NCBI GenBank assembly: GCA_007692755.1
Contig: REBL01000110.1
Coordinates: 8,527 to 72,526 of the forward strand
Source of the DNA: Nodularia sp. (in: cyanobacteria)
Lineage (GTDB): Bacteria; Cyanobacteriota; Cyanobacteriia; Cyanobacteriales; Nostocaceae
Reading direction: 5' to 3'
Length of the DNA: 64,000 bases
The position numbers and the translations under genes are program-made. How positions within the stretch are numbered: the stretch's first letter is position 1; every line of letters starts with the position of its first letter. The notes under the pieces were generated by a model. The model was given only the letters and a program-made list of their open reading frames with translations. It had not been told where the DNA came from and did no database searches. Shown here in pieces: positions 1,384 to 16,957 of the stretch.

Positions 1384-2109
1384 ATGTCTCATTACCAAAT
1401 GAACAATGAATCGAAAGTTGTAGACAGTTGTCCAGGTAAATTCTTAACGCCTTTTCAATTGAGGCTTTTGCAGAAAGGTCTACAAAAAAATCTACCTGAT
1501 TCCTATCGTCAGCGCATTGAAATTATGCTACTAGCAGACCAGGGGAAATCTCAAACAGCAATTTGTAAAACTTTAGGTTGTTGTCCAGCAACAGTCAGAC
1601 ATTGGACGCATATAGCCCGTACTGGTATGGCGCATCAATGGCAAGATTGTCCCATTGGTCGCCCGAAAGCAGTCAACGAGGAATACTTGGAACGGTTAAA
1701 AGAACTGGTTTTAAATAGTCCTCGCGATTACGGCTATGCTTTTCGCCGCTGGACAGCCAACTGGCTTCAAAAACATTTGGCTAAAGAATTTGGGATTGAA
1801 GTGAGCGATCGCCATATCAAGCGACTGCTTAAACAAATGGGATTATCTACGCGACCAAAAACCAATAACCAGCCAGAAGCAGGATCTGAAAATACGAAAA
1901 GTTCCAGCATATTGATTCACGACCTGAAATCCGACAACATCCCCGAACATATCGGATTTCTGCCTATTCAATTCGCAAAACTAGGTATGGAGTCAGAAAC
2001 TTATGGTGCAAAATCTATCCGATCCTGTGGTTTTCTTACAACAGTTGAACCATGCATTAGGTCATTCACTGGGCGAAGCGGAATTTCAGCGCTACTACCA
2101 ACAATTTAA
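1384..2109 (+). CDS. Helix-turn-helix protein resembling the DNA-binding N-terminus of IS630/Tc1-type transposases (no DDE domain); possible cluster regulator
   Basis: The HTH is LLADQGKSQTAICKTLGCCPATVRHW. A second winged-helix segment is RRWTANWLQKHLAKEFGIEVSDRHIKRLLKQMGLS. No catalytic domain follows. The last 107 nt overlap the exporter ORF in another frame, so the real C-terminus is uncertain. Confidence 0.55.
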   Translation: MSHYQMNNESKVVDSCPGKFLTPFQLRLLQKGLQKNLPDSYRQRIEIMLLADQGKSQTAICKTLGCCPATVRHWTHIARTGMAHQWQDCPIGRPKAVNEEYLERLKELVLNSPRDYGYAFRRWTANWLQKHLAKEFGIEVSDRHIKRLLKQMGLSTRPKTNNQPEAGSENTKSSSILIHDLKSDNIPEHIGFLPIQFAKLGMESETYGAKSIRSCGFLTTVEPCIRSFTGRSGISALLPTI

Positions 2110-4723
2110 ATTTCTCAGCCCGAAAGTCGGAAAGTTTTGGCAAGGAGAAGATACAGAAGCTGGAGTATATATTGCGATCGCTGGCAAAGTCAGGTTGTTA
2201 AATGATCAGGGAGAGCTAATTACCACTTTGGGATCTGGAGAGTCTTTTGGGGAATTTACCTTATTCCCAGAGGCTAACTTCCAACCCTATGGGGCTAGAG
2301 CAAGTGTTAATTTACAACTATGCTTTATTCCCGCCGCAGTTTTATCGGCCTTGATGATTAAATATCCTTCAATTAAAGAGCATTTACTAGCTAAGGCAAA
2401 TGCCAATAATTCGCTGCTGGTGGGTTCCGATCAATCACCTCAACACAATAAAACCGAAATTCCCTCAGCACCAGTCATACCAGTTACAGAACCTCAGCTA
2501 GACAAAAAACTTAGCAAAGCTTACTTTCCCAGTCCTAACCAGCGAGTTGGACATTTATTACAACGAACAATTCGCCGTTACCCATTTTTTAACCAACAAA
2601 GTGCATCAGATTGTGGTGCAGCTTGTTTAGTCATGGTGTCTCGTTATTGGGGTAAACGCTTTAGTGTGAATCGCTTACGGGATATCGCTAATGTTGACCG
2701 CAATGGTGCATCTTTGCGTGGTTTATCCACAGCAGCAGAAAGTATTGGGTTTAGCACACGACCAGTAAAAGCCAGCCTAGATCAGTTAGCCAAGCAAAAA
2801 CTACCAGCCATTGTTCACTGGGAAGGCAAACATTACATTGTGGTTTATGAAATTACCCAGAAATCTGTGATTGTCGCCGACCCAGCAATTGGTCAACGGA
2901 CTCTGAGTCATGCTGAATTTAAAGCAAATTGGACTGGCTATACACTGCTGCTGCAACCCACAGCCTTTTTAAAAGATACCAAAGACACGATAACTCCCTT
3001 CTGGCAATTCTTTGAACTACTCAAGCCTCACAGCTTGGTCATGTTGGAAGTATTTGCCGCATCTGTGTTTATTCAGATATTTGGACTGATTACCCCTTTA
3101 TTCACTCAGTTAATTTTAGATAGGGTAGTAGTACAGCGTTCTGAACTCACCTTATTTGCCGTCGGTTTAGGATTACTAATTTTTAGTTTATTCCGTGTAG
3201 CAATGATGGGTTTGCGGCAATATTTATTAGACCACACGGCTAATAAAATAGATGTGGCATTAATCGTGGCATTTATTCGCCATACTCTGCGCCTACCCCT
3301 CAGTTACTTTGAGTCCCGTTATGTGGGGGATATTACCTCTCGCGTCCAAGAAAATCGCAAAATTCAACGTTTTCTTTCTGGTGAAGCATTATCTATCCTG
3401 CTAGATTTACTCACTGTTTTTATCTATCTAGGATTGATGTTTTGGTATAGCTGGAAAATGGCATTGTTATCCTTAGTAATTGTGCCACCTTTTGTGCTAT
3501 TAGCTTTGGTTGCCACACCTTTTTTACGCAAAATTTCCAGAGAGATTTTTAATGCCTATGCCACTGAAAGTAGTTATCTAATTGAAGCTCTTTCTGGTGT
3601 CAGAACAGTGAAGTCTACGGCAGTAGAACAGACAGTGCGTTGGCATTGGGAAGAGTTATTGCATAAGGAAATTAAAACTGGTTTTTCTGGACAGATTATT
3701 GGTAATCGCCTGCAAATATTTAGTAATTCTATTCACGCAATTGTTACGACTACTTTACTGTGGTTTGGGGCATATCAAGTAATTCACAATCAGTTAACTA
3801 TTGGTCAGTTAGTAGCATTTAATATGCTCTTAGGAAATGTAATTGCACCATTTCAGCGATTAACAGTTTTGTGGAGTGAATTACAAGAAGTCACCATTGC
3901 AGTAGAGCGGATTAATGATGTATTAGATGCAGAACCAGAAGAGGACTTACAGCATCAAGCTAGGCAATCTTTACCACCAATTAAAGGACATATTCACTTT
4001 GACAATGTGACATTCCGCTATCATCAAGAAAGTGATATTAACGTTTTAGAAAACCTCAGTTTTAGGGTTAAACCAGGACAGATGGTGGCTTTAGTCGGTC
4101 GTAGTGGTTCAGGAAAGACAACTATTTCTAAGTTAGCTTTGGGGTTGTATCCGCCTACAGATGGCAAAGTCTTAATTGATGGACAAGATATTACTAGCCT
4201 TTCCTTACGTTCCTTACGGGAACAAGTTGGGGTAGTTGACCAAGATACTTTTCTATTTGGCGGCACAATTCGAGAGAATATTAGCTTAGGATATCCTGGG
4301 GCAAAATTAGAAGAAATTATTGAAGCCGCCACATTAGCGGGTGCTGATGAGTTTATCAAAAAAATGCCTATGGGCTATGAAAGTCAAATCGGTGAAGGTG
4401 GGGGAATGTTGTCTGGTGGACAACGACAAAGAATTGCGATCGCGAGAGCATTATTAGGCAATCCTCAATTGTTAATTTTAGATGAGGCTACTTCCCATTT
4501 AGACGCTGAATCAGAGCGAATTATTCAGAGTAATTTAAATATCATCCTCAAGGGAAGAACCACATTAGTAATTGCTCATCGTCTCTCAACTGTACGTAAT
4601 GCAGATTTAATCTTAGTGCTGGATCGAGGTGTGCTAATCGAGAGTGGTACTCACGAAGAGTTAATGGCTAAACGGGGACATTATTTTTATCTGAATCACC
4701 AGCAATTAGATAACGCAGCCTAA
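2003..4723 (+). CDS. Bacteriocin/RiPP exporter: cyclic-nucleotide-binding domain + C39 peptidase + ABC transporter (TMD + NBD)
   Basis: N-terminal cNMP fold (GESFGEFTLF ... GARASV). C39 catalytic Cys (QQSASDCGAACLVMVSRYWG) and His (GKHYIVVYE). Multi-helix TMD. Walker A GRSGSGKTT, signature LSGGQRQRIAIARAL, Walker B LLILDEATS, H-loop IAHRLST. Confidence 0.9.
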   Translation: MVQNLSDPVVFLQQLNHALGHSLGEAEFQRYYQQFKFLSPKVGKFWQGEDTEAGVYIAIAGKVRLLNDQGELITTLGSGESFGEFTLFPEANFQPYGARASVNLQLCFIPAAVLSALMIKYPSIKEHLLAKANANNSLLVGSDQSPQHNKTEIPSAPVIPVTEPQLDKKLSKAYFPSPNQRVGHLLQRTIRRYPFFNQQSASDCGAACLVMVSRYWGKRFSVNRLRDIANVDRNGASLRGLSTAAESIGFSTRPVKASLDQLAKQKLPAIVHWEGKHYIVVYEITQKSVIVADPAIGQRTLSHAEFKANWTGYTLLLQPTAFLKDTKDTITPFWQFFELLKPHSLVMLEVFAASVFIQIFGLITPLFTQLILDRVVVQRSELTLFAVGLGLLIFSLFRVAMMGLRQYLLDHTANKIDVALIVAFIRHTLRLPLSYFESRYVGDITSRVQENRKIQRFLSGEALSILLDLLTVFIYLGLMFWYSWKMALLSLVIVPPFVLLALVATPFLRKISREIFNAYATESSYLIEALSGVRTVKSTAVEQTVRWHWEELLHKEIKTGFSGQIIGNRLQIFSNSIHAIVTTTLLWFGAYQVIHNQLTIGQLVAFNMLLGNVIAPFQRLTVLWSELQEVTIAVERINDVLDAEPEEDLQHQARQSLPPIKGHIHFDNVTFRYHQESDINVLENLSFRVKPGQMVALVGRSGSGKTTISKLALGLYPPTDGKVLIDGQDITSLSLRSLREQVGVVDQDTFLFGGTIRENISLGYPGAKLEEIIEAATLAGADEFIKKMPMGYESQIGEGGGMLSGGQRQRIAIARALLGNPQLLILDEATSHLDAESERIIQSNLNIILKGRTTLVIAHRLSTVRNADLILVLDRGVLIESGTHEELMAKRGHYFYLNHQQLDNAA

Positions 4724-4774: not shown

Positions 4775-6355
4775 ATGACAGATACATTAAATGGACAAGT
4801 AAAAAACCAACTTCATGAAGATGGAATCTATCAGGAAGTTTTAACACCTCAAAATCCAGCTATTTCTAAACCAGAACTTAATCAGGAAACGAGAACATCT
4901 CAGACATCAGCTATAGCCATCTCAACTGATGATTGGTCTCATGTTACCAAAGATTTGCTTGATAGCTTACCACAAGTTTGGACAAGAGGATTACTATACT
5001 TTTTAATTATTTTTGTAGCGATTATTTTACCTTGGGCAATGTTTTCGCGCGTAGATGAAACAGGTGTAGCTAGAGGCAGATTAGAACCCCAAGGTAAGAC
5101 GGTGAGACTGGATGCTCCTGTTGCTGGAACTGTTGCCGAAATTCAAGTTAAAGAGGGTGATATAGTTAAGAATGGACAGATTTTGTTAGTATTGGAATCT
5201 GAATTAGTCCAAGCCGAGTTACGACAGGTAAAAGACAGGTTAGAAGGGCAATTAAATAGGCGATCGCAGTTAAATTTATTACAGAGCCAGTTAATTGTAG
5301 CTTTAGCCACTCAAGAACAACAAAATCAATCTCAAGAGTTAGAAAAACAATCTCAAATAGACCAAGCCAGACAGAACTTGAATGCTATTAGAAGTTCATC
5401 TAATTTACAAAAAGAAGAAAAATTATCTCAGGTCAATCAAGCACAGCAAACAGTTGAATATAGTCAAACTGCTAACAACTTAATAGCAAGTAGTTTAGCC
5501 AGTACCCAACGAGAAGTTAACCGCTACCGTCAACTTTGGGAAGAAGAAGTAATTCCAGAAATTACAGTTATAGAAAAACAAGATATTGCTAAAGAACAGC
5601 AAAGATTGTATGAACAGAGTAAATCAGATATTCGGCAAGCTAAGTTAAGGTTAGCAGAACAACAGAGTAGTTATGAACGGACTCTTAGTCAATTTAATGC
5701 CGATATTGAACAGGCTAAATTACGGCTTAATGAACAAGAAAATAGTTATCAGACAGTAACTCATGTGGGTAAACTTGCGGTACTCAAAACTCAGGAACAA
5801 TTAAAAAATATAGATACAGAAATTTCCACACTCAATGCAGAAATTGCACAAACTCAAAGCCAAATTCAGTCTTTAGAGTTTCAAATAAGTCAACGAGTTT
5901 TAAAAGCAAACGTGAATGGTACTGTATTTCAGTTACCAATTGAAAAAGCTGGTTCTGTAGTTCAGCCAGGCACAATGATTGCCGAAATTGCCCCAATAGA
6001 TTCGCCTTTAATTATTAGAGCGCAAATGGCTACAACTGAGAGCGGTTCTTTACAAAAAGGATTACCCGTTAAGCTCAAATTCGATGCTTATCCTTTCCAA
6101 GATTATGGAGTTATTGCCGGCGAATTACTAGAAATTTCTCCGACGACAACAGAAATAGATACACCTAGCGGAAGAGTAGCGGCGTATAACTTAGAAATTG
6201 CGATGAATCAGCATTGTATTCCTAGTCGTGATCAATGTATTCCCTTAAATCCTGGGGATACTGCAACTGCTGAAGTGATAGTGCGTCAGCGTCGCATTAT
6301 TGATTTTATCCTTGATCCATTTAAGAAATTACAACAAGGAGGAGTGAAATTATAA
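4775..6355 (+). CDS. HlyD-family periplasmic adaptor / secretion protein partnered with the C39 exporter
   Basis: N-terminal TM helix (LLYFLIIFVAIILPWAMF), lipoyl-like hairpin (VAEIQVKEGDIVKNGQILLVLE), a long Q/E-rich coiled coil and a C-terminal barrel. It starts 51 nt after the exporter stop. Confidence 0.85.
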   Translation: MTDTLNGQVKNQLHEDGIYQEVLTPQNPAISKPELNQETRTSQTSAIAISTDDWSHVTKDLLDSLPQVWTRGLLYFLIIFVAIILPWAMFSRVDETGVARGRLEPQGKTVRLDAPVAGTVAEIQVKEGDIVKNGQILLVLESELVQAELRQVKDRLEGQLNRRSQLNLLQSQLIVALATQEQQNQSQELEKQSQIDQARQNLNAIRSSSNLQKEEKLSQVNQAQQTVEYSQTANNLIASSLASTQREVNRYRQLWEEEVIPEITVIEKQDIAKEQQRLYEQSKSDIRQAKLRLAEQQSSYERTLSQFNADIEQAKLRLNEQENSYQTVTHVGKLAVLKTQEQLKNIDTEISTLNAEIAQTQSQIQSLEFQISQRVLKANVNGTVFQLPIEKAGSVVQPGTMIAEIAPIDSPLIIRAQMATTESGSLQKGLPVKLKFDAYPFQDYGVIAGELLEISPTTTEIDTPSGRVAAYNLEIAMNQHCIPSRDQCIPLNPGDTATAEVIVRQRRIIDFILDPFKKLQQGGVKL

Positions 6356-6440
6356 ATATTCTCATAGTTACTTAACGCTTTTAAGCACCAACTAAGCGAA
6401 AAACTTGTTTAGCATTACGTTAATTTATTGGAAACAACTC

Positions 6441-7187
6441 ATGTCAGAAAATGTAACTATTACCACTGAAGATATTCTGCATCAAATCAAATTATCTTGC
6501 AAAATTCCCGATATAGTCAAGGAAAGTATTACTCGCAAAATTATTAAAAATGCTGCCATTGAGGCAGATATAAAGGTTGAGACAGAAGAACTTCAAAGAT
6601 CAGCAGACCAAATTCGGCTAATCAACAAACTCAATAGTGCTGATGATACCTGGAAATGGTTGGAAAAAAATGGTTTGTCCCTAGATGACTTTGAAGAAAT
6701 AGTCTACGATACTGTGATTTCTGGAAAGTTAGCTGCTCATCTGATGGCGGATAAGGTCGAAGCTTATTTTTATGAGAATCAACTTGATTATTTTGGTGTG
6801 GTGATTTACGAAGTTGTACTAGATAATGAGGATTTAGCGCTAGAACTTTTCTATGCGATTCAAGAAGGTGAAATGAGCTTCTATGATGTTGCTCACAAAT
6901 ATATTCAAGATACAGAGTTGCGGCGTAAAGGAGGATATTTAGGTAGAGTGAATCGTCAGGATTTAAGACCAGAAATTTCTGCTGCTGTTTTTGCAGCTAC
7001 ACCACCACAGCTTCTCAAACCGATATTAACTTCTAAAGGAGTTCATTTGATTTTGGTGGAAGAGATAATTCCAGCAGAATTAAATAACTTATTACGTTTT
7101 CAAATCTTGTCAGATTTGTTTGGTGAATGGCTGAAGCCACAAATTGAAGATGTAGAATATTACACTAACCTGAAGCTAAATAACTAA
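6441..7187 (+). CDS. Parvulin-type peptidyl-prolyl isomerase with SurA-N-like helical domain (copy 1)
   Basis: C-terminal rotamase signature RRKGGYLGRVNRQDL ... TSKGVHLILVEE. I place the start at ATG 6441 rather than the TTG at 6405 used by the ORF track. Confidence 0.7.
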   Translation: MSENVTITTEDILHQIKLSCKIPDIVKESITRKIIKNAAIEADIKVETEELQRSADQIRLINKLNSADDTWKWLEKNGLSLDDFEEIVYDTVISGKLAAHLMADKVEAYFYENQLDYFGVVIYEVVLDNEDLALELFYAIQEGEMSFYDVAHKYIQDTELRRKGGYLGRVNRQDLRPEISAAVFAATPPQLLKPILTSKGVHLILVEEIIPAELNNLLRFQILSDLFGEWLKPQIEDVEYYTNLKLNN

Positions 7188-7771: not shown

Positions 7772-7978
7772 ATGGCTTCCATTACAGTTTCTAATCTTTA
7801 TCCACTTGGCTCTGATCTATTCATGGATTCTGAGAGCTTTATGGATGCATTGAATGATAACGAACTTGCTGAAATCAATGGTGGAGTAACACCAGCAGTG
7901 ATTACCACAATTGCTACCAAGTGGTTTATTGGTGCTGCTGTTGGTGGTGCTATCGTTGGTAGCATCATTTATTGGTAA
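7772..7978 (+). CDS. Double-glycine-leader precursor peptide A1 (38-aa leader, 30-aa Cys-free hydrophobic core)
   Basis: AGGAG lies 8 nt upstream of the ATG. The leader ...GSDLFMDSESFMDALNDNELAEINGG ends in the canonical L-x-x-x-E-L-x-x-I-x-GG. The core is VTPAVITTIATKWFIGAAVGGAIVGSIIYW, with G-x-x-x-G-type motifs, 4 Thr, 1 Ser and no Cys. Confidence 0.8.
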   Translation: MASITVSNLYPLGSDLFMDSESFMDALNDNELAEINGGVTPAVITTIATKWFIGAAVGGAIVGSIIYW

Positions 7979-8054
7979 TAGCAATAGCAATAGCTTCCCT
8001 GGCGAACTATCCCTCCACTCATATCAATTCTACTGAACATAACGGAGAACAATC

Positions 8055-8270
8055 ATGTCAACAATTAATATCCAAGATATCAAAGTAGCCGGTTCTGATC
8101 TATTTTTTGACGAAGAAACCTATCTAAATGAGCTTTCTCATGATGAGATAGGGGCTGCTAAAGGTGGTATCACTCCCACTGTTGCTGGAACTATTGCACT
8201 CAGCAGTGCTTTTGTACTCAGCTACAACCTGAGCAAAATTGGTACTGAATTGAAGAACAAATTTTTCTAA
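8055..8270 (+). CDS. Double-glycine-leader precursor peptide A2 (38-aa leader, 33-aa Cys-free core)
   Basis: GGAGAA RBS. The leader ...GSDLFFDEETYLNELSHDEIGAAKGG shares the GSDLF-x-D-x-E box and exact length with A1. The core ITPTVAGTIALSSAFVLSYNLSKIGTELKNKFF shares the N-terminal (V/I)TP(A/T)V motif. Confidence 0.8.
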   Translation: MSTINIQDIKVAGSDLFFDEETYLNELSHDEIGAAKGGITPTVAGTIALSSAFVLSYNLSKIGTELKNKFF

Positions 8271-8455
8271 AAAATATGTGCTTGAGTAGACAATAATACA
8301 CAAAATTAATTGTTTACTTAGGTTAAATTTTTAAACAAAGGATGTGAGAGTTACAATTACCTTAACAATACTAGGTTGACTAACTCTCAATTCCTTACTT
8401 CTTCAGAATCAAACACTGTGGTGTTTATCATTAGCCCTCACTTACAAAGGCAATT

Positions 8456-8710
8456 ATGAACTTCAATGATTTTCCAACTGTTATGTCTATAATTGCTTTA
8501 CTAATAGGTATAACATTTTTAATTTTGTCTGATTACATAGCGGCTGGCGTGTGGCTATGTTATGGTTTAGCGACATTATTAGTTAATAAAGTTGGTTCAT
8601 CTAATATGGATAATTTTAGCCGTATAGATGTAATAATTGCTTGGGCTACAATTGTCAGTTTTATTAGTTTATTGTTGTTTCAGCTACACAGGGATTTCGT
8701 TGCTAGATAG
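8456..8710 (+). CDS. Small integral membrane protein (candidate immunity protein)
   Basis: 84 aa dominated by hydrophobic helices (VMSIIALLIGITFLILSDYIAAGVWLCYGLATLLV; IIAWATIVSFISLLLFQL). It sits directly after the two precursor genes, and its stop is 10 nt before the kinase ATG. Confidence 0.5.
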   Translation: MNFNDFPTVMSIIALLIGITFLILSDYIAAGVWLCYGLATLLVNKVGSSNMDNFSRIDVIIAWATIVSFISLLLFQLHRDFVAR

Positions 8711-8720
8711 AGAATAACTG

Positions 8721-9899
8721 ATGATATTTGCATTAAGCTCTCAAAATGTTTTTGATTATTTAGTTACACACCAGATATGTCAACTAGAAGAACAACCGAG
8801 TAGTATTGAGATTAAATTTGCTAAAAACTTTAATTTGCTATTGCAGTTGAAAAATGGCTGTCAGCTTTTAGTTAAACAAGAGCGCCACACCCTGGATGGA
8901 AAAACTGCTGGTGAATTTCTCAATGAATGGCGAACTCAAGAGTTATTACGAAAATTTTCAGAATTTGAGGGCATTAAGTCATCATTTCCAGAAGTGCTGT
9001 ATTTTAATGCCATTGATTCAATTATTGTTTTCAATTACCTGGCCGATTATCGTGACTTAAACGATTTTCATATCAAGACAAATATTTTCCCGGCTGAGGT
9101 CGCTACCTTAATTGGAGGCATATTAGCAGAAGTACATCGCACCACAATTAATCATCGAAAATATCAGGAATTTTTGGTTGAGCAACTTAATGGTGAAGCA
9201 AATTTACAGGTTTCCGACTTTACGCGTGGGTTGGAGCGTGTTGAACCTGAAATATTTGGCTTGGTTCCCGCAGATGCTCTGAAATTTTTTGCACTTTATC
9301 AGCGCTATGACAGTCTTGGTCAAGCATTAACAGAACTTTCTGGCGCGTTTACACCTTGCTGTTTGACTCACAATGACTTGAAGTTAAATAACATTTTACT
9401 GCACAATGACTGGGAGCAATTCTTGGGTAGTGCAGAACCAGCTAGGGCTGGGATAATTCGGATCATCGATTGGGAACGCTCCGGTTGGGGAGATCCTGCT
9501 TATGATTTGGGGACTATTATTGCTAGTTACCTGCAAATTTGGCTCAGTAGCTTGGTAATTAGCCAATCTCTAGATATTCAAGCAGCATTACGCCTGGCCA
9601 TAGTACCTTTAGAATATCTACAACCTTCAATAACAGCTTTGATCAAAGCTTATTTTAGTAAATTCCCGGAAATTTTAGAGCATCGCCCAGATTTTTTAAA
9701 ACGTACAATTCAATTTTCAGGACTTGCCTTGATTCAACAAATTCAGGCAATGATTCAATACCAAAAATCCTTTGGTAATGCGGGTATTTTTATGCTGCAA
9801 GTTGCCAAAAGTTTGCTATGTCGTCCAGAGCAATCGATATCGACAGTGTTTGGAATGACAGAGTTAGAGTTGATTAACCTCAGCTACTCTCAAGTCTGA
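8721..9899 (+). CDS. APH / eukaryotic-like protein-kinase-fold phosphotransferase
   Basis: The catalytic loop HNDLKLNNILL matches the H-x-D-L-K-x-x-N type. The metal-binding segment is IRIIDWERSGWGDPAYDLG. The size and layout fit the aminoglycoside-phosphotransferase-family kinases used in class V lanthipeptide clusters. Confidence 0.7.
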   Translation: MIFALSSQNVFDYLVTHQICQLEEQPSSIEIKFAKNFNLLLQLKNGCQLLVKQERHTLDGKTAGEFLNEWRTQELLRKFSEFEGIKSSFPEVLYFNAIDSIIVFNYLADYRDLNDFHIKTNIFPAEVATLIGGILAEVHRTTINHRKYQEFLVEQLNGEANLQVSDFTRGLERVEPEIFGLVPADALKFFALYQRYDSLGQALTELSGAFTPCCLTHNDLKLNNILLHNDWEQFLGSAEPARAGIIRIIDWERSGWGDPAYDLGTIIASYLQIWLSSLVISQSLDIQAALRLAIVPLEYLQPSITALIKAYFSKFPEILEHRPDFLKRTIQFSGLALIQQIQAMIQYQKSFGNAGIFMLQVAKSLLCRPEQSISTVFGMTELELINLSYSQV

Positions 9900-9924
9900 G
9901 TTTCGTTGTTTAACCAAGATTTTT

Positions 9925-11052
9925 ATGCAATTACTGGATTCTCTTCAAAATCAATTACCAGTTAATTTCTCCAATAATGTGCTGGATGCAATCCGAGACA
10001 TTGCGCGCAATGTTCAGTTTCAGTCTAATTTCTGTGTCAGCCATCCAGCATACAAACCTTTGGATTTACCAGAAGAGGTGGTGACTCGATTTCAAAAAGT
10101 ACCTTTAGACCTGCAAAATAAGTATCTAAGTTTGCAATTACGCAGCTTTATTTATGGAATTTATTATAACGGTTCCTTGTGGAATACTCTCGCTTTGGGT
10201 AAAGATTCAAAAGATTTGCTTCTACAACAAAATCTAGAGAACAATACTCTATTGGGAGTAGATTGGGAATTTTATGCCCGACTGCATGAAAGCAATAGTG
10301 GACAAGGTTACTTTGATCCTGGTTGGCAGGTGTTGAAGTTAGAAATTGATGGTGATCTAGTGGTCACGAAGGGTGGATTAAAACTTCATATTAACCGCGA
10401 TCGCCATCTGCAACTCGAAGAACAATCTGCTAACCTGGGAGACATTGTGGCCATCCGCCTCCCACGAAATTTGATTCAAAATGGCTTTTATGTAGCTGTT
10501 GGTAATGCAGGGACAAATAGCCATAAAAAGGCAGAAAATCAGACTCAATTGGTGCGCGTTTACTTCAATTTAGCTCCTGAAGGCGCACCTGCTGTGATGA
10601 AAAATTTAACGCAACACCTCAATGCAGCGTCAATCTTCTTTTCTTTTAAACTTCTCTACAATCCCGCCGACTATACCCGCTTTGATTCAGGTGTTCTCTA
10701 TTTTGAGCGCAGCCATTATGAAACTATGCGCCAAGTCATACAAACAGTGTATACCCAAGAGCGATCGCACTTCCAAAGAGAAATACCTCTATTTACCAAG
10801 TTCCTCGCACCAGGTTTAGGACTAGCCGAAGAACCAAATCATCAGTTTTCTGAACAAGAAAGTTTTGGAATGCATCGGTGTCAAATAGTCAGTAATGGGC
10901 TATTAACAGCGCAGCAATTAGGGGACGAGTCAGAAGATACCAGAATAAACTTGATTCTGGAAGAATTTTCGGCTCTGGGTATTAAGTTAGCACATCCTTA
11001 CTTAAACGCTAATTCGGAAGACATTTATACCCCACTGGACTTATGCGAATAG
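9925..11052 (+). CDS. HopA1-effector-family-like protein (candidate phospho-Ser/Thr lyase)
   Basis: The assignment is by recollection of family features: RVYFNLAPEGAPAVMKNLTQHLN...FSFKLLYNPADYTRFDSGVLYF, about 370 aa, and obligate adjacency to an APH-type kinase. I did not verify it by HMM. The gene is tightly packed between the kinase and the reductase genes. Confidence 0.5.
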   Translation: MQLLDSLQNQLPVNFSNNVLDAIRDIARNVQFQSNFCVSHPAYKPLDLPEEVVTRFQKVPLDLQNKYLSLQLRSFIYGIYYNGSLWNTLALGKDSKDLLLQQNLENNTLLGVDWEFYARLHESNSGQGYFDPGWQVLKLEIDGDLVVTKGGLKLHINRDRHLQLEEQSANLGDIVAIRLPRNLIQNGFYVAVGNAGTNSHKKAENQTQLVRVYFNLAPEGAPAVMKNLTQHLNAASIFFSFKLLYNPADYTRFDSGVLYFERSHYETMRQVIQTVYTQERSHFQREIPLFTKFLAPGLGLAEEPNHQFSEQESFGMHRCQIVSNGLLTAQQLGDESEDTRINLILEEFSALGIKLAHPYLNANSEDIYTPLDLCE

Positions 11053-12056
11053 GCGATTTATCTCAAAAGCCAACAACTGTACTCGGTGAATCAAACCAAT
11101 TAATCGCTAAATTTACCGAGTCAGATATACCTTTTTATCGCCAACTGGGGCGAACTAATTTAAAAGTAAGTTGTCTGGGTTTAGGCGGTGGGGGATCAAT
11201 TTCCAGTGAAGATACCCTTTACGCCTTTGAGCAAGGAATTAATTATTTCTTCTACTCCAGCGATCTGCATCATTTTTTATACAGGTCAATGGCTGATGCT
11301 CTGCGTAAACTCTGCGGACGAGGCTCTTCGGTACGCGAAAAAGTTGTTCTAGCAACAGTCACTTATATTAAAAATCCAGAAATTGTTCTCTCTGCTCTAT
11401 TCGATCAGTTTCAAGAACTGGGTATTGATTACATTGATGTCCTGCATTGGGGTTGGGTAGGAGAAAATGATCACTCAGCTCTGAATAATTGCTTGCAGCT
11501 TTCCCCAGATATCAGAGGTGCAAGTAGCGTTTATCAGCGCACCATTGAAAGAGTATTTGGTGTCTCAGAGCGCCTAAAAAAAATGGGAGCTGTCCGCTAT
11601 GTTGGTGCTTCTTTCCATGACCTCAATTTAGCTCATCAGTGGTTAAATAGCCCTTTGTTAGATGTGGTGATGGTGAGGCATAATGTCGCTCATCGCTCTG
11701 CTCAACATCAAGCCTTTAATTGTTTGAATGTAGCAGATCCACAGCGTCCAGGGATTGTCACATTTAAATCTACAGGCTCTCATACTGGTTCCTTGTGGGA
11801 AGTTCCTCCTAGTTTACCTAGTAATTGCTGGCGACCTAATGTGCCAGATTTATACCGATACTCCTTATCGCAGAATTCTGTTGATGTTTGCCTCATGGGC
11901 TTGCAGCGTCGGGAAGAAATTGATGCTGCGATCGCGGGTGTGCAAAGAGGTAAATTAACTCCTGGTGAGATAGAATACCTCAACTTCTACGGAGATTTAC
12001 ACCGCGATCGCATAAAAATTGGGGATATTCCCCCAGAAAAGTTGATTTACCGATAA
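11043..12056 (+). CDS. Aldo/keto-reductase-like oxidoreductase
   Basis: FYRQLGRTNLKVSCLGLGGG matches the AKR N-terminal Y-x-x-LG-x-T-x-x-x-VS-x-LG-x-G. A (beta/alpha)8-like periodicity follows. The canonical D-T-A..Y catalytic stretch is replaced by GINYFFYSSDLHHFLY, so the tetrad is not confidently identifiable. The ATG overlaps the upstream stop by 10 nt. Confidence 0.55.
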   Translation: MRIGDLSQKPTTVLGESNQLIAKFTESDIPFYRQLGRTNLKVSCLGLGGGGSISSEDTLYAFEQGINYFFYSSDLHHFLYRSMADALRKLCGRGSSVREKVVLATVTYIKNPEIVLSALFDQFQELGIDYIDVLHWGWVGENDHSALNNCLQLSPDIRGASSVYQRTIERVFGVSERLKKMGAVRYVGASFHDLNLAHQWLNSPLLDVVMVRHNVAHRSAQHQAFNCLNVADPQRPGIVTFKSTGSHTGSLWEVPPSLPSNCWRPNVPDLYRYSLSQNSVDVCLMGLQRREEIDAAIAGVQRGKLTPGEIEYLNFYGDLHRDRIKIGDIPPEKLIYR

Positions 12057-12152
12057 ATGAAAGCAACCGCCGATGTGTGGGGTTTACCTACCTCTGGCCG
12101 CAATCTCTAATTTCATTCATCCAAATTGCTCATAATTACAAAGGATAGAGTC

Positions 12153-12890
12153 ATGGTAGAAAGTTTGACAAAACCTTCATCAATTGTCCCAGCCACAGAT
12201 GCAGAAATTTTAGCTTACCTGCGTTATTCTCACAAAATTACTGATATTGCTGCTTTAGTAGAACGAAATACCATAGTTTTACGAGCTTGCGAGAAGTTTA
12301 ATATTATAGTTACCGATGAAGAACTACAAGCAGCCGGAGATACATTTCGTTTAGAACACAAGCTTGTGGGAGCATCAGAAACCTTTAACTGGCTGTCTCA
12401 GCAGCGAATTTCTGTAGAAGATTGGTCTTTAGGCATCAAAATTGACCTTCTTACCAAAAAACTGAAAGAATATCTCTTTGGTATGGAAGTTGACGCTGAT
12501 TACATGAACAACCGCAATGGCTATCGGCGAGTCATGCTATCTCAGATTTTAGTACCTGATTTATCTGATGCCTTAAAAATTGTCCATTTAATTCAAAAAG
12601 AAAATGCTTCTTTTGCAGCCCTAGCTGTAGAATATTCTCAAGGTAAAAAATCTCAAGAAAATGGTGGTTTTGTTGGCTTACATTTGCTAGTAGAATTGAT
12701 GCCAGAAATTGTCCAAGCTCTCACTGATGCAGTAGCAGGAGAAATAATTGGACCAATTTCCAGCCAACTTGGTCATCACATTCTGAGAATTGAAAAATGG
12801 TTCCCTTCTGAACTGACTAATTCAGGTAGGGAAAATATTTTAGAATCTCTTTTCCAAGTTTGGTTACAAAATTTTCGCGCTAATTTTTGA
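12153..12890 (+). CDS. Parvulin-type peptidyl-prolyl isomerase with SurA-N-like domain (copy 2)
   Basis: It has the same architecture as copy 1. The rotamase region is SQENGGFVGLHLLVELMPEIV ... SSQLGHHILRIEK. I place the start at ATG 12153; the track uses the TTG at 12126. Confidence 0.65.
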   Translation: MVESLTKPSSIVPATDAEILAYLRYSHKITDIAALVERNTIVLRACEKFNIIVTDEELQAAGDTFRLEHKLVGASETFNWLSQQRISVEDWSLGIKIDLLTKKLKEYLFGMEVDADYMNNRNGYRRVMLSQILVPDLSDALKIVHLIQKENASFAALAVEYSQGKKSQENGGFVGLHLLVELMPEIVQALTDAVAGEIIGPISSQLGHHILRIEKWFPSELTNSGRENILESLFQVWLQNFRANF

Positions 12891-13211
12891 AATCAGCCAC
12901 TTTTTTAAAGAGTGGAATTTTACTGCCATTTTCTAGCATAAAAATGCCAAAATACGACGTATTTACTTAAAATTCATTTTAAGTGATTTGGCTCATCTTC
13001 TATTCTGTCTAAAGCTTTTTTAGCTCTAAATACAAGTCGTAAATAAGCTAATTGGCTATTCCAAGCTGAACGAGGTAACAGAGGTTCAGGGGAATTTAAC
13101 TCGGCTTGAGTTTGATTGGAGGATGAATCCAAATTACTGTTCATTTCTTTTGTGGACATATTCAGATCAATCAAAAAATTGGTGAACTGGCTTTCAATTA
13201 GAAGCAACTGA

Positions 13212-14456
13212 CTATGGGACTGACTCTGGTTCCTTTTGCCAACTGTCTGACCAATGAACGCGATCGCTTGTAAAATGTAGTGGATCGTTTTCTGGCCAAG
13301 GGGCATCAATCGGTTCTTCAATCAAAGCAAACTCCCCATTATCAAAGGGATTGCCATCGGCTCGACGTTGGAGAAATACTCGTTCTCTCATGCCATTTTT
13401 TTCGTGAGTCAAGGCGCGATGATGACAGTAAGGATTATTCCCGCGCTTGTCAAAAAAGACGTGTGCAGTCCAACTGCAACCACCTCGACACAATTCGGCA
13501 AACTCGCAAGTTTTGCAGAAACCCCAGAGATGATCTGTACCTTGGGGAGTACCAGCACCTAAATTAAACCGCAATTCTTCCGTTTCCTCAATGATGCTTC
13601 GCAAAGAGCGATCGCGGATATTACCACCTGTATAAGCTGAAGTTGGTAATGAAGGACAACCTTTAATCGCCCCATCGGCTTCAATTCCTAAAGCCGAGAG
13701 TCCAGCACTGCATCCCTGCCAAAAAGTCCAAGCATCCCCATCACCTCTTAACAATCGCTCATAGGGGCCGTAGTAACCGATATTATTCCCTGCTTGCAGT
13801 CTGACCCCCTCTTCCTTGGCACGTTTAGCAACACGAGCAATCATCGGATAAACATCCAAGAGTTCGTAAGGTTGCAACAGAATCTCATTATTATCCGCCG
13901 CATTGCCCATCGGTACAGTTAACTGAATCTGCCAAGCAAAAATACCTGCATCCCGGAGATGTTCATATATACTGGGGAATTCTGGTGCAGAAAGGCGATT
14001 GATTTGTGTATTGCAACCAAAAGGAATACCTGCTTGCTTCAGATGACTCATAGTTTTAAAAGCCCATTGCCAAGCACCTTGTTTACCACGGATGCGATCG
14101 TGAGTTGCTTCCAAGCCATCTACAGATACAGAAACTACACCAATACCAGCGGCTTTCATCCGGTGGGCTGTGTCTAAAGTAATTCCATAACCCCCAGTAG
14201 TCATACCACATAGCATTCCCGCTTGGGTAATGGCTTGGGCAATTTCTAACCAATCTGGACGGAGAAACGCTTCACCTCCAATAATAGTTACTTCAGTGAT
14301 GCCAACATCTGCCATTTGTTTAACCATATCCAGGGCTTCTGCTGTGGTCAATTCATTTACCCTAGTTTGTCCAGCACGAGAACCGCAGTGTTGACAAGCA
14401 AGATTGCATTTTAATGTAATTTCCCAAACCGCATAGCTAATTCGGCGATAGGTCAT
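13212..14456 (-). CDS. Radical SAM / SPASM-domain peptide maturase (splicease-like candidate)
   Basis: C-x3-C-x2-C at WEITLKCNLACQHCGSRAG. The C-terminal auxiliary-cluster Cys set is CSAG...GCPSLP...CKTCEFAELCRGGCSWTAH...YCHH. It is the last large gene of an operon containing Nif11-leader precursors. Confidence 0.85.
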   Translation of the reverse strand: MTYRRISYAVWEITLKCNLACQHCGSRAGQTRVNELTTAEALDMVKQMADVGITEVTIIGGEAFLRPDWLEIAQAITQAGMLCGMTTGGYGITLDTAHRMKAAGIGVVSVSVDGLEATHDRIRGKQGAWQWAFKTMSHLKQAGIPFGCNTQINRLSAPEFPSIYEHLRDAGIFAWQIQLTVPMGNAADNNEILLQPYELLDVYPMIARVAKRAKEEGVRLQAGNNIGYYGPYERLLRGDGDAWTFWQGCSAGLSALGIEADGAIKGCPSLPTSAYTGGNIRDRSLRSIIEETEELRFNLGAGTPQGTDHLWGFCKTCEFAELCRGGCSWTAHVFFDKRGNNPYCHHRALTHEKNGMRERVFLQRRADGNPFDNGEFALIEEPIDAPWPENDPLHFTSDRVHWSDSWQKEPESVP

Positions 14457-14483
14457 AAAAGTTACCTCTAATTAATTTAGATA

Positions 14484-14509
14484 GGGACGAGTTTCATTTC
14501 ATCCGTCCC
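14484..14509 (-). promoter_or_regulatory. Intercistronic stem-loop between the precursor genes and the rSAM gene
   Basis: GGGACG (14484-14489) pairs with CGTCCC (14504-14509) around a 14-nt loop. It lies between the stop of the Nif11 precursor (14525) and the rSAM start (14456). Confidence 0.3.
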
Positions 14510-14524
14510 CAATACTCTAATTTC

Positions 14525-14872
14525 CTAAAATTCAGAGTTTACAACTCCATACAATGGCTGAGGTTGAGGTTCCCACGGCATAGGTGGCCACGTAATTACC
14601 CCATATAGTGGCCGAATTACAGGCTTGCCCAGAAAGCCACCAAAAACAGCTTCTAGTTCTTTTTCACTCAAATCTTGGAGTTCACCTTTATTAGCAGTGG
14701 ATTCCAACAATTGGATGGTATATTCTTCAAACTCTTGTTGTGTAAAATCGTAACCTGCACTTTGAACTACTTGGCTACATTCATCTTTACTTTGCACACC
14801 TTGTATTTGAGTGCGAAAAGTTTCATCATTTGCTAACTGTTCGTAGAAACCTTTGACGTTTTCTAGAGACAT
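14525..14872 (-). CDS. Nif11-type leader precursor peptide N1 (79-aa leader ending GG, 36-aa core with two L-Y-G motifs)
   Basis: The leader MSLENVKGFYEQLANDETFRTQIQGVQSKDECSQVVQSAGYDFTQQEFEEY...LSEKELEAVFGG is the Nif11 leader family. The core is FLGKPVIRPLYGVITWPPMPWEPQPQPLYGVVNSEF. The LYG codons are at 14600-14608 and 14546-14554. Confidence 0.9.
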   Translation of the reverse strand: MSLENVKGFYEQLANDETFRTQIQGVQSKDECSQVVQSAGYDFTQQEFEEYTIQLLESTANKGELQDLSEKELEAVFGGFLGKPVIRPLYGVITWPPMPWEPQPQPLYGVVNSEF

Positions 14873-14896
14873 AGTTTTATCCTCAAAAAGTCACTT

Positions 14897-15226
14897 TTAA
14901 AGAGTATTTCGTGGCAAAAGATTAATTGGTGGCAACCCATACAGTAAGACCATATAAGGTAATATAGATCCCACAAGTGCTGTAGTTGCACCACCAACAA
15001 CTGCTGCTAATTCTTTTTCACTCAAATCTTGGAGTTCACCTTCATTAGCAGTGGATTCCAATAATTGGAGAGTATATTCTTCAAACTCTTCTTGTGTGAA
15101 ATCGTAGCCAGCACTTTTAACTATTTGGCTACATTCATCTTTACTTGTAGCACCTTGAACTTGAGCGCGGAAATGCTCATCTTTTGCTATTGTTTCGTAG
15201 AAAAATTTGACGTGTTCTAAAGACAT
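14897..15226 (-). CDS. Nif11-type leader precursor peptide N2 (79-aa leader ending GG, 30-aa core with one L-Y-G motif)
   Basis: The leader closely matches N1 by eye (MSLEHVKFFYETIAKDEHFRAQVQG...LSEKELAAVVGG). The core ATTALVGSILPYMVLLYGLPPINLLPRNTL is unrelated. The LYG codons are at 14936-14944. Confidence 0.9.
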   Translation of the reverse strand: MSLEHVKFFYETIAKDEHFRAQVQGATSKDECSQIVKSAGYDFTQEEFEEYTLQLLESTANEGELQDLSEKELAAVVGGATTALVGSILPYMVLLYGLPPINLLPRNTL

Positions 15227-15258
15227 ATTCTGCTCCTAAAATAGAATTGTAAATTGGC

Positions 15259-15696
15259 TTATCTAGAAATGGGAGTTGCTACATCTACTATGAGGTCAGA
15301 TGCATTGTAGTTATCTGTAATCACTTGCGGGCAACGCTTACAAGCTGCCTTACCTTCTTGTTGCCACCAACGACAATCTCTGCGTATAGAACAGGGAGGA
15401 AGTTCCTCAGCTACCGCAGGTAATTTCTCTACAACTTGCATTGCGAGACGGCAATCTTGTCCATCAAAATGCTGACAGTTTTTAGTCGCGCAAGGTGAAG
15501 CTGTACGGAAGATTTCGGCAGGTGTAATGGGACTAGCTTTGGCTAATAGTTCACTTGTGACAGGCTGTGGCTGCTTGAGATAAGCTACACGAGGTTCTGC
15601 TACAGTTCCACCGATGACTCCAAAGACAACACTATTTACAGATTCTGGCCTAGCACTGGGACAGAGTGTGGTATTTTCAGTAGGCAAATTTTCCAT
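15259..15696 (-). CDS. Small 8-Cys protein of unknown function (candidate rSAM accessory / PlpY-like partner)
   Basis: 145 aa. The Cys pattern is CATKNCQHFDGQDCRLA ... PPCSIRRDCRWWQQEGKAACKRCPQV. It lies between precursor genes in the same operon as the rSAM enzyme. I recognise no enzymatic motif. Confidence 0.5.
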   Translation of the reverse strand: MENLPTENTTLCPSARPESVNSVVFGVIGGTVAEPRVAYLKQPQPVTSELLAKASPITPAEIFRTASPCATKNCQHFDGQDCRLAMQVVEKLPAVAEELPPCSIRRDCRWWQQEGKAACKRCPQVITDNYNASDLIVDVATPISR

Positions 15697-15741
15697 TAAT
15701 CAAGCCTCTAGCAAAGAAACTGTTTTTACTTCAGGCTCAAA

Positions 15742-15996
15742 TTACTTAATTGTTATTGTTGGTGGGATATAAATAATGCCTAGTGTAATTGGAGGACAAA
15801 TAGGGAAGTAACCCGCGATCGCAAACTTTGTCACCAGACCGCCAGAAATATTTGCAGCTTCTTCTTCAGACAAGCCTGACAAAGCTGGTTCGGCATCTAA
15901 TGCTTGGTTTCTTCTTTCTACTGCATTGTTCACAGCATCATCAATCAAATCATTAATTTCAAATTGACTGTGACGCTCACTTTGATTCTTTGCCAT
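15742..15996 (-). CDS. Double-glycine-leader precursor peptide G3 (53-aa non-Nif11 leader, 31-aa Pro-rich core)
   Basis: I place the start at ATG 15996 (MAKNQSERH...), which is preceded by GAGGAAA. The track begins at 16080. The leader ends LSGLSEEEAANISGG. The core is LVTKFAIAGYFPICPPITLGIIYIPPTITIK. Confidence 0.7.
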   Translation of the reverse strand: MAKNQSERHSQFEINDLIDDAVNNAVERRNQALDAEPALSGLSEEEAANISGGLVTKFAIAGYFPICPPITLGIIYIPPTITIK

Positions 15997-16957
15997 TTTG
16001 AATTTCCTCTTTATTTGGGTTTTATTTTTACCACTAAATATAGTGATAGTAGAACTTTTCAAATTATAGAGGAAAGTCAAATTACTTATCTAGTTAACTA
16101 GAGCTTTCTGGAAGATATAAATAAATCATTTATGTCACTAACATTTATTAAAAATTAAGTGTGGAATTCGTTAATGGCTTAAGCTATAGGACTGCAATTT
16201 GATTCTAGAAAATATACTGAGGCTCCAAAGCCCTATTTAACAAGGTTAAAGCTGAAATCACTCTAGTTTTTCGATACAATTTTGTGCATAAACTAAAACA
16301 TTTATGTCCCAATAAACTTTTTGTTGGATCAGCAATTGCCGCTATTAGTCAACACCTGATAGCATCAAAACCCGGATAAATAATGTTTGTTATGTACCTT
16401 GCTAGGGAAATTTAATATTCTGTTCAAACTGAGAATTAAACAATAAATAATATTTTGTTTTGATAACTTTTAGTCAAAAAGTAGTGGTAAATATTACTAG
16501 ATGAATATACAAAGATTGCCTTAATGAAGGATTTTTCCATAGCGATGTACAATAAAACTAACTGCCAAAGGTTCACCCTTACTTCTAGGATCACAGCGAA
16601 GCCACTTTCACCCAAATTGTTGCATCCTGCGGTAAACCTATATGTATTAGAAGTAGGTGATCAACAGCATACCTGTAGGCAACGGAAAAATTGCGTAAAA
16701 CCTGCCTGAAAAAGAGTTAATCAGCTCCTTGGGGCGTGATATTTGGGAATCTCTACAATCACCACAATTTGAGTTTATTTGCAGCTAGTACCGCTGCGCG
16801 GAAGTCAAAAGTCAAAAAGCTTAACTATATAGGCTTGGCATTGATTTTGGATAGTTGTGCTAATTCCGCTGTGCTGGACTAGGATAACCTATCTGCAAAG
16901 ACGACCTATTGACAATTTACCCAAAAGCGTTTCCAGATTTAAAATCTAGAGGAGTCC

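Follow-up and report, generated by a model that had tools for sequence, protein, structure and literature searches.

What do the dehydrating enzymes of class V lanthipeptides do beside peptides that contain no cysteine? This question is raised by a gene cluster of the cyanobacterium Nodularia sp., which lies in a stretch of 64,000 nucleotides (nt) (GenBank assembly GCA_007692755.1, contig REBL01000110.1, positions 8,527–72,526; hereafter the window). Two precursor peptides with double-glycine (GG) leaders, A1 and A2, are followed there by genes for a small membrane protein, a kinase, a HopA1-family protein and a protein with the fold of aldo-keto reductases (AKRs). Lengths are given in amino acids (aa).

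7772–7978, plus strand: precursor A1, 68 aa, with a 38-aa GG leader and a 30-aa Cys-free core
8055–8270, plus strand: precursor A2, 71 aa, with a 38-aa GG leader and a 33-aa Cys-free core
8456–8710, plus strand: 84-aa hydrophobic protein, a candidate immunity protein, with homologues only in loci with A1/A2-type peptides
8721–9899, plus strand: LanK-like Ser/Thr kinase of the APH fold, 392 aa (APH PF01636, E = 1.5e-8), with the motifs HNDLKLNN and IDWE...GDPAYDLG
9925–11052, plus strand: LanY-like phospho-Ser/Thr lyase of the HopA1 family, 375 aa (PF17914, E = 1.6e-57)
11043–12056, plus strand: AKR-fold protein with a remodelled active site, 337 aa (PF00248, E = 4.3e-6), whose gene overlaps the lyase gene by 10 nt

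The overall best explanation, to which we give somewhat better than an even chance, is that the Cys-free pair is dehydrated by the kinase and the lyase, is then acted on by the AKR-fold protein, and is exported. Dehydration without lanthionine is the best reading of the cluster, and it is strengthened by the family-wide data. In this respect the interpretation in the original prediction, made from the window sequence, stands; the reductase which it included is not established, and its claim of novelty was wrong.

Precursor Peptides

The core sequences are VTPAVITTIATKWFIGAAVGGAIVGSIIYW for A1 and ITPTVAGTIALSSAFVLSYNLSKIGTELKNKFF for A2, and the number of Cys is zero in both. Shine-Dalgarno-like sequences (AGGAG/GGAG) are located 7–9 nt upstream of the ATG of each gene. 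The seven open reading frames (ORFs) originally reported, with their coordinates and motifs, the 38-aa leaders ending in GG and the Cys-free cores, are all present. No other peptide bearing an A1/A2-type leader was found within the window, and with both cores Cys-free, no lanthionine is possible, as had been proposed. The original prediction also pointed out a shared (V/I)TP(A/T)V-like start of the cores. It is seen in A1 and A2, but is not strictly conserved, as paralogues start with LAP, IIP or LIH. An x-(T/S)-P core start was considered as a conserved modification site and dropped on account of these paralogues; the motif is present in 25 of 141 unique cores.

Comparison among genomes was based on 81 loci, which are the window and the best 80 of at least 543 loci encoding a HopA1-like relative in species-representative genomes. 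The core of A2 has orthologues in three of them (L001, L034 and L035). The predicted layout of two peptides and a small membrane protein recurs. The 84-aa protein matches no Pfam or NCBIfam family; its relatives are present in six other loci, all of which have A1/A2-type peptides and most of which have both members of the pair. An immunity role fits this co-occurrence.

It could be considered that the pair A1/A2 is a usual class IIb two-peptide bacteriocin without modification, and that the genes for the kinase, the HopA1-like protein, the AKR-like protein and a PpiC-like protein downstream are merely adjacent, serving other peptides or another purpose. A1 scores 28.9 bits with TIGR03949, the model for class IIb bacteriocins of the lactobin A/cerein 7B family, and so passes its cut-off of 21.5 bits; in Pfam it is at the cut-off of Bacteriocin_IIc, whereas A2 matches no family model in Pfam or NCBIfam. 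GxxxG-like motifs are present in the cores, the small membrane protein comes after them, and comparison of the A1-type or A2-type paralogues shows no Ser/Thr position that is kept throughout. Other facts make such a bacteriocin improbable. About 50 of the 81 loci, from many genera, have the gene order in common. One conserved leader precedes extremely different cores, which is a hallmark of leader-guided modification, and the window offers no other precursor with this leader. The genes are also tightly packed, with gaps of 10 nt between the 84-aa protein and the kinase and 25 nt between the kinase and the HopA1-like protein, followed by the 10-nt overlap with the AKR-like gene. Modification of A1 and A2 by the adjacent genes is the reading followed below.

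Kinase and HopA1-Like Lyase

The original identities of the kinase and the HopA1-like protein hold: both PF01636 and PF17914 were matched, and the catalytic residues of both proteins are conserved. Among the NCBIfam models, LxmK (NF038156; E = 8e-21) fits the kinase best, and the match covers the full length. The score of 74 bits is far under the equivalog cut-off of 315 bits, so the kinase is a relative of LxmK rather than an orthologue. When the PDB was searched by sequence, neither the kinase itself nor its family profile gave a chain named LxmK at E < 0.01, and the link to LxmK thus comes from the NCBIfam model only. The kinase family conserves K52 (the ATP-binding Lys), E69 (the helix-C Glu), H217-N218-D219 (the HND catalytic loop), N224 and D250 (the metal-binding Asp).

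The HopA1-like protein can be aligned with the solved LxmY lyase (9dk1_B, E = 1.6e-7), and 20 family members all have its residues H40, R211, K242, R252 and Y259. Mutagenesis of CaoY revealed that R187 and K219 are essential and that R229 and H57 contribute, while Y236 is conserved (PMC9486802). In the window protein, R187, K219, R229, H57 and Y236 of CaoY correspond to R211, K242, R252, H40 and Y259, respectively, and the spacing of catalytic residues is identical at K+10 and K+17. With their catalytic residues kept, both the kinase and the lyase look active. It is likely that Ser/Thr dehydration occurs in A1 and A2, as judged from these sequences.

Distribution and Gene Order

The HopA1-like protein has 1,449 relatives in the databases, and the named top matches are all cyanobacterial. 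The 80 fetched loci are also cyanobacterial, except one contig binned as Rhizobium. This contig (L035, labelled "Rhizobium sp. Q54", a metagenome-assembled genome (MAG)) contains a full cyanobacterial-type cluster, and its A1/A2-type peptides are very close to those of the Pseudanabaena MAG L034. Faulty binning is a more probable cause than horizontal transfer.

In 78 of the 81 loci, the HopA1 gene is accompanied by a kinase gene. Searches by phmmer with A1 or A2 detected 146–148 small ORFs at E < 1e-5, in 62–64 of the loci. Because of this recurrence, the gene pattern is no chance event. Peptides with the canonical leader number 154 and are found in 72 loci. The order that recurs in about 50 loci is precursors, kinase, HopA1, AKR-like and PpiC-like, with a set of exporter, HlyD and another PpiC-like gene on either side. 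The closest locus, L001 of Calothrix membranacea FACHB-236, has an arrangement identical to that of the window.

Two variant orders were found. One has the precursors between the genes for the kinase and HopA1. The second, kinase-HopA1-precursor-kinase-HopA1, lacks the AKR-like gene (L016, L027, L030, L031, L045, L047, L048, L055, L057–L060 and L062). The second-copy kinases inspected (L055 and L027) have Lys or Asn in place of the catalytic Asp, and the cores of these loci have repeated S-L-L-L-C motifs. By their sequences, these double loci appear to be genuine class V-type lanthipeptide clusters, with a pseudo-kinase as a possible cyclase.

Composition of the Cores

Cores without Cys are usual in this family. 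Among the 154 canonical cores, 81 have no Cys and 44 have one, and there is none without Ser/Thr; Ser and Thr together make up 21% of the core residues. Loci with Cys-free cores only are 20 of the 72. The number of Cys differs with the presence of the AKR-like gene. Cores with fewer than two Cys are 99 of the 111 unique cores in loci with an AKR-like gene, versus 14 of the 30 in loci without it (Fisher p = 2e-6). The remaining 16 of the 30 have at least two Cys, typically in SLLLC motifs. With loci of the AKR-like type Cys-poor and two or more Cys frequent in the others, the window subtype is taken as the non-lanthipeptide branch of the family, and its sister branch resembles true class V lanthipeptides.

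Lanthionine is not the only ring that a dehydro-residue can give. A nucleophile other than Cys could capture Dha or Dhb (dehydroalanine or dehydrobutyrine), such as Lys to give lysinoalanine, and the products would be cyclic without lanthionine. Lysinoalanine formed from Dha is known in duramycin-type peptides, and A1 contains one Lys and A2 three. Many cores of the same subfamily hold only Leu, Gly, Ile, Thr and Phe (e.g., LLGITLTITITITITFTL) and so are without any nucleophile. Such capture cannot therefore be the general chemistry of the family, and for the window pair it is very improbable.

Dehydration without cyclization remains the preferred reading, and some cores suggest what could follow it. 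At least four strictly alternating Ser/Thr-X positions are present in 24 of the 111 unique cores from loci with an AKR-like gene (e.g., LLGITLTITITITITFTL and LRIASVTVTVTVTWTWTWTW), versus 2.8 ± 1.7 expected from shuffles that keep the composition; many of the alternating cores come from related Nostoc strains, and the counts are not independent events. Alternation is seen in none of the 30 cores from loci without the gene. An independent instance is locus L086 of an unrelated high-G+C bacterium, where LanB-type dehydratase and AKR-like genes accompany Cys-free cores of the alternating style with long Ser/Thr-X runs, TLTVTISISGTISISY...SLSISASASISASISW. The cores of A1 and A2 themselves do not alternate. 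The alternation fits reduction, as D-Abu (D-2-aminobutyric acid) or D-Ala at every second residue would yield peptides of alternating D and L residues.

Eight Nostoc loci (L026, L040, L041, L044, L050, L061, L072 and L076) have three to six precursors between the kinase and HopA1 genes. Their cores of 18–25 aa show alternating Thr/Ser and hydrophobic residues, most lack Cys, and some end with WTWTWTW. If Thr were converted to D-Abu, this tail of D-Abu and L-Trp would be similar to the end of gramicidin A, where D-Leu and L-Trp alternate.

AKR-Fold Protein

The AKR-like protein is 71–89% identical across cyanobacteria. Its match to Aldo_ket_red (PF00248) has 26.4 bits, slightly over the curated cut-off of 24. 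An AlphaFold (AF2) model based on 85 diverse sequences has a pLDDT (predicted score of the local distance difference test) of 86.9; an earlier run with 22 close homologues, which reached a pLDDT of 39, was discarded. The top Foldseek matches of the model are all AKRs, with E-values down to 2.4e-16, template modelling (TM) scores of 0.6–0.7 and identities of 14–19%. The model, Foldseek and PF00248 agree on an (alpha/beta)8 barrel of the AKR topology.

The catalytic tetrad Asp-Tyr-Lys-His is not complete. In an alignment with AKR1B1, the reference sequence of which was entered by hand, the canonical Lys is replaced by the invariant V106, the position of the His is occupied by the invariant G137, and the nicotinamide-binding Asn is replaced by F191; S190 beside F191 is kept. 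D74 and Y80 are invariant, and in the model they are located just after strand 2 and just before helix 2, where the Asp and Tyr of AKRs would be. The two AKR residues may be kept as D74 and Y80, at a place where the alignment is ambiguous. F241 appears to fill the position of the nicotinamide-stacking aromatic residue, according to our own motif comparison outside the AKR1B1 alignment. The invariant polar residues of the protein are H76, Y108, H192, R212, N214 and H217, and in the wider AKR-like clade the conserved ones are H192, R212, N214, H217, Y271 and R272. The original prediction was right in calling the gene AKR-like. With the canonical Lys, His and Asn replaced, "reductase" as a function, and with it any cofactor use, is a hypothesis and no reading of the sequence.

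Residue 135 (11445–11447 of the window) is His in this protein and Phe in at least 90% of 22 family members. It adjoins the canonical His position, which is occupied by the invariant Gly.

A search of 1.84 billion representative proteins yielded 736 proteins related to the AKR-fold protein. Outside cyanobacteria, the five nearest of those on informative contigs each have a link to a Ser/Thr dehydratase; the association covers these five, and the more distant P0272, P0273, P0281, P0288 and P0298 are on short or uninformative contigs.

P0297 (locus L081, 554–2329): single polypeptide of 591 aa, with a HopA1 domain (residues 123–293) and an AKR-like domain that falls in one clade with the window protein
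P0250 (locus L082): between split LanB-type dehydratase genes and a gene for a B12-radical S-adenosylmethionine (SAM) protein, which the P0250 gene overlaps
P0255 (locus L086): gene overlapping that of a LanB-type dehydratase, and a B12-radical-SAM gene at some distance downstream
P0254 (locus L087): about 0.8 kb from an operon of methyltransferase, LanB and LanC genes, in divergent orientation
P0245 (locus L090): overlaps the start of a LanM gene, with two lanthipeptide-like precursors upstream

The gene for P0297, on a high-G+C metagenome contig, is followed by genes for a 953-aa AMMECR1-domain protein and a HEAT-repeat protein. Fusions with HEAT repeats are also seen in other distant relatives of the AKR-like domain. 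L086 (351–1499 and 7001–14550) and L082 (3242–10119) are from uncultured high-G+C bacteria and combine a LanB-type dehydratase, the AKR-like protein and a B12-binding radical-SAM protein, without LanC.

The kinase/HopA1, LanB and LanM routes have only the product Dha/Dhb in common. For this reason dehydro-residues are the most likely target of the AKR-fold protein, and from the gene neighbourhoods we consider an action on them to be somewhat more probable than not. That the reaction is a reduction to D-Ala/D-Abu is a more tentative proposal, to which we give a little less than an even chance.

The AKR-fold protein might instead be no reductase at all, with the dehydration taking place as proposed. 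It could add a group to Dha/Dhb, isomerise it, or serve the kinase-lyase complex only as a structural component. In that case linear dehydropeptides would be the mature products, with a function like that of linaridins, or the peptides would carry a so far unknown modification. The replaced Lys, His and Asn and the different set of invariant polar residues (H76 to H217 above) agree with such a role, and so do the modest TM scores to real AKRs and the presence of non-redox proteins of the same fold (SmbA, 7b0e) among the Foldseek matches. D74 and Y80, invariant where the model places the AKR Asp and Tyr, are harder to reconcile with it, as is the stacking aromatic apparently kept as F241. Moreover, its genes appear singly, as an accessory, in dehydratase clusters of the class I, class II and class V types, a distribution known for LanJ reductases as well. 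This alternative is on balance rather unlikely; reduction is still the likeliest single reaction.

Proposed Pathway and Its Significance

The pathway below is our chemical reading of the gene content and order, the motifs, the conservation of catalytic residues and the neighbourhoods of relatives, and we infer every chemical step in it. Two precursors with a common 38-aa GG leader would be made, and the leader would recruit the kinase-lyase pair. The LanK-like kinase would phosphorylate Ser/Thr of the cores, and the HopA1/LanY-like lyase would eliminate the phosphate to leave Dha/Dhb. No lanthionine would form, because the cores are without Cys and no cyclase is encoded. The AKR-fold protein, with its gene translationally coupled to that of the lyase, would act on the dehydro-residues, the likeliest reaction being an NAD(P)H-dependent reduction to D-Ala/D-Abu. 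An exporter and its HlyD partner would cut after GG and secrete the peptides. The two peptides could jointly act on membranes, with the 84-aa membrane protein protecting the producer.

Several of the facts given above weigh against this pathway: the distance of the kinase from LxmK and the lack of an LxmK chain in the PDB searches, the resemblance of the cores to unmodified class IIb bacteriocins, the lack of a strictly conserved Ser/Thr position, and the replacement of Lys, His and Asn in the AKR-fold protein. Besides, a literature search that left out most subscription journals found no characterised product for any cluster of the cyanobacterial family.

The most interesting point is the link of the AKR-fold protein to several dehydratase types. 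New here are the AKR fold with the canonical Lys and His replaced, and its closest non-cyanobacterial relatives beside LanB/LanM or fused to HopA1. It can be speculated further that AKR-fold proteins are a fourth, structurally new class of dehydroamino-acid reductases, with an AKR barrel and an unusual active site, working downstream of three mechanistically distinct dehydratase types, kinase/HopA1, LanB and LanM; that the class IIb-like window pair becomes linear peptides with D-Abu/D-Ala; and that the alternating cores of sister loci (such as LRIASVTVTVTVTWTWTWTW) become alternating D/L peptides whose D-Abu/L-Trp tail recalls gramicidin A, beta-helix channel formers of ribosomal origin made without a radical-SAM epimerase. 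Taken as a whole, this is doubtful. The same literature search found no report of an AKR-type LanJ or an AKR-type dehydroamino-acid reductase.

If the peptides are dehydrated, class V-type dehydratases would play a large part in nature beyond lanthipeptides. Should the AKR-fold protein reduce the dehydro-residues, it would represent a new class of enzymes that install D-amino acids in ribosomal peptides, and it would be independent of F420, the cofactor of the class V reductase LxmJ. Hundreds of cyanobacterial genomes carry such clusters, and reports of their products were not found. The window provides a compact test case, with a single kinase, a single lyase and a single AKR-fold protein for two short substrates that lack Cys. 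The alternating-Thr cores in the same subfamily, and independently in the LanB cluster of an unrelated bacterium, make the question of reduction directly testable.

Exporter, PpiC-Like Genes and the Rest of the Window

The cluster extends past 7772–12056 on the plus strand in both directions, with exporter, HlyD and PpiC-like genes upstream and a second PpiC-like gene downstream.

2003–4723, plus strand: exporter with a domain binding cyclic nucleotide monophosphates (cNMP), a C39 double-glycine peptidase and an ATP-binding cassette (ABC) transporter, in a 906-aa ORF
4775–6355, plus strand: HlyD-family membrane-fusion protein, the exporter partner (HlyD_3, E = 6.5e-21)
6405–7187, plus strand: PpiC/parvulin-like protein of the transport set (Rotamase, E = 2.3e-11)
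12126–12890, plus strand: PpiC/parvulin-like protein of the modification module (Rotamase, E = 5.6e-11)

The Pfam matches of the exporter are Peptidase_C39 (1.8e-42), ABC_membrane (9e-50), ABC_tran (4e-36) and cNMP_binding (3e-9). An exporter homologue is present in 54 of the 81 loci, and the order exporter-HlyD-PpiC recurs among them. An ORF of 241 aa with transposase-type helix-turn-helix domains (1384–2109) extends over the initial 107 nt of the exporter ORF. The overlap points either to a more downstream start of the exporter or to a remnant of a mobile element that borders the cluster.

The two PpiC-like proteins are about 30% identical and belong to separate clades, one of which accompanies exporter genes and the other modification genes. 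The downstream one comes after the AKR-like gene in about 47 loci. Because orthologues begin at internal Met codons, the true starts are probably the ATGs around 6441 and 12153, not the called TTGs. The His pair of parvulins is incomplete in both clades. The first His is replaced (SQILV in the downstream copy and YEVVL in the transport copy), and only the second (H218) is invariant. A role as a Pin1-like phospho-Ser/Thr-Pro isomerase was considered and rejected, since the first catalytic His is gone and the non-cyanobacterial AKR-like relatives have no PpiC neighbour. A terminator-like hairpin is located at 12897–12915, after this last gene; scans for promoters and terminators gave signals at or near background.

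A second, separate cluster for ribosomally made peptides with post-translational modifications (RiPPs), of the radical-SAM/Nif11-leader type, occupies 13212–16080 on the minus strand. It probably shares the C39 exporter.

Within 13212–16080, minus strand: nif11-class peptide radical SAM maturase 3 (TIGR04103, E = 3.5e-256)
14525–14872 and 14897–15226, minus strand: two Nif11-leader precursors ending in GG
15259–15696, minus strand: 145-aa Cys-rich protein without a family match
15742–16080, minus strand: precursor of a third type, with the core LVTKFAIAGYFPICPPITLGIIYIPPTITIK

Precursors of the "INDLIDDAV...GG" kind, like those of this Nif11 cluster, are also found with a radical-SAM gene in several of the related loci.

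Comparison with Known Systems

The original prediction knew of no such combination in cyanobacteria, but it had already been described. In a survey of HopA1 proteins, Eyles et al. 2021 (Chem Sci, PMC8153245) detected an accompanying phosphotransferase gene in 96% of cases. Their Family 1A consists of 570 peptides from 183 clusters, in cyanobacteria only, with a conserved GG leader and cores without conserved Ser, Thr or Cys. Dataset 1 of the survey has columns for peptidylprolyl isomerase and aldo/keto reductase, and dataset 2 contains peptides with the A1/A2-type leader box (MANIKVSELRPAGSEFFQDSESFLNDLND...GG) (PMC8153245). By sequence, the window cluster is one more member of this chemically uncharacterised group. 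It has a cyanobacterial host and cyanobacterial homologues, several non-identical peptides with a conserved GG leader of the same family and variable cores, and HopA1 and phosphotransferase genes 25 nt apart, next to the precursors; genes for a peptidylprolyl isomerase and an aldo/keto reductase co-occur. There is no difference in kind, although the survey proposed no product and did not examine the AKR-like protein. Cyanobacterial "type-B" LanA candidates were reported by Liang et al. 2022 (PMC9486802), in which only Cys-containing ORFs were selected.

With class V lanthipeptides, represented by LxmK/LxmY of lexapeptide and CaoK/CaoY of cacaoidin (PDB 9DK1), the window shares the LanK/LanY enzyme pair, and the catalytic Arg, Lys, Arg, Tyr and His of the lyase are conserved. 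The differences are in the substrate and in the third component. The window cores are Cys-free, so neither lanthionine nor AviMeCys (aminovinyl-methylcysteine) can be formed, and the leader is of the GG type, with predicted cleavage by the C39 exporter. Among the window ORFs scanned, comprising most of those with 100 aa or more in about the first 49 kb, there was no HFCD decarboxylase, LanX-type cyclase or F420-dependent LxmJ, and no LanC, LanM or LanB domain.

The likeness to class IIb bacteriocins of the lactobin A/cerein 7B type extends over the layout: GxxxG-like motifs are present in two adjacent GG-leader peptides, and the other genes include those for a small membrane protein and for a C39-ABC exporter and its accessory protein. 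The difference is that class IIb peptides carry no modification, and the window has a conserved module of four modification genes behind the precursors. Linaridins such as cypemycin could be similar in the product, if it is a linear Dhb peptide without lanthionine. Their dehydration machinery is unrelated; none of the window ORFs tested matched a linaridin-type dehydration protein in Pfam or NCBIfam.

Known LanJ reductases are of three kinds, the zinc/NADPH-dependent LanJA, the flavin-dependent LanJB and the F420H2-dependent LanJC. The AKR-fold protein differs from them in being a triosephosphate isomerase (TIM) barrel of the AKR type, with a role proposed from gene neighbourhoods. It would resemble them in its proposed role, and the relatives of the AKR-like protein share with LanJ the position of a single accessory gene beside dehydratases of class I, class II and class V types.

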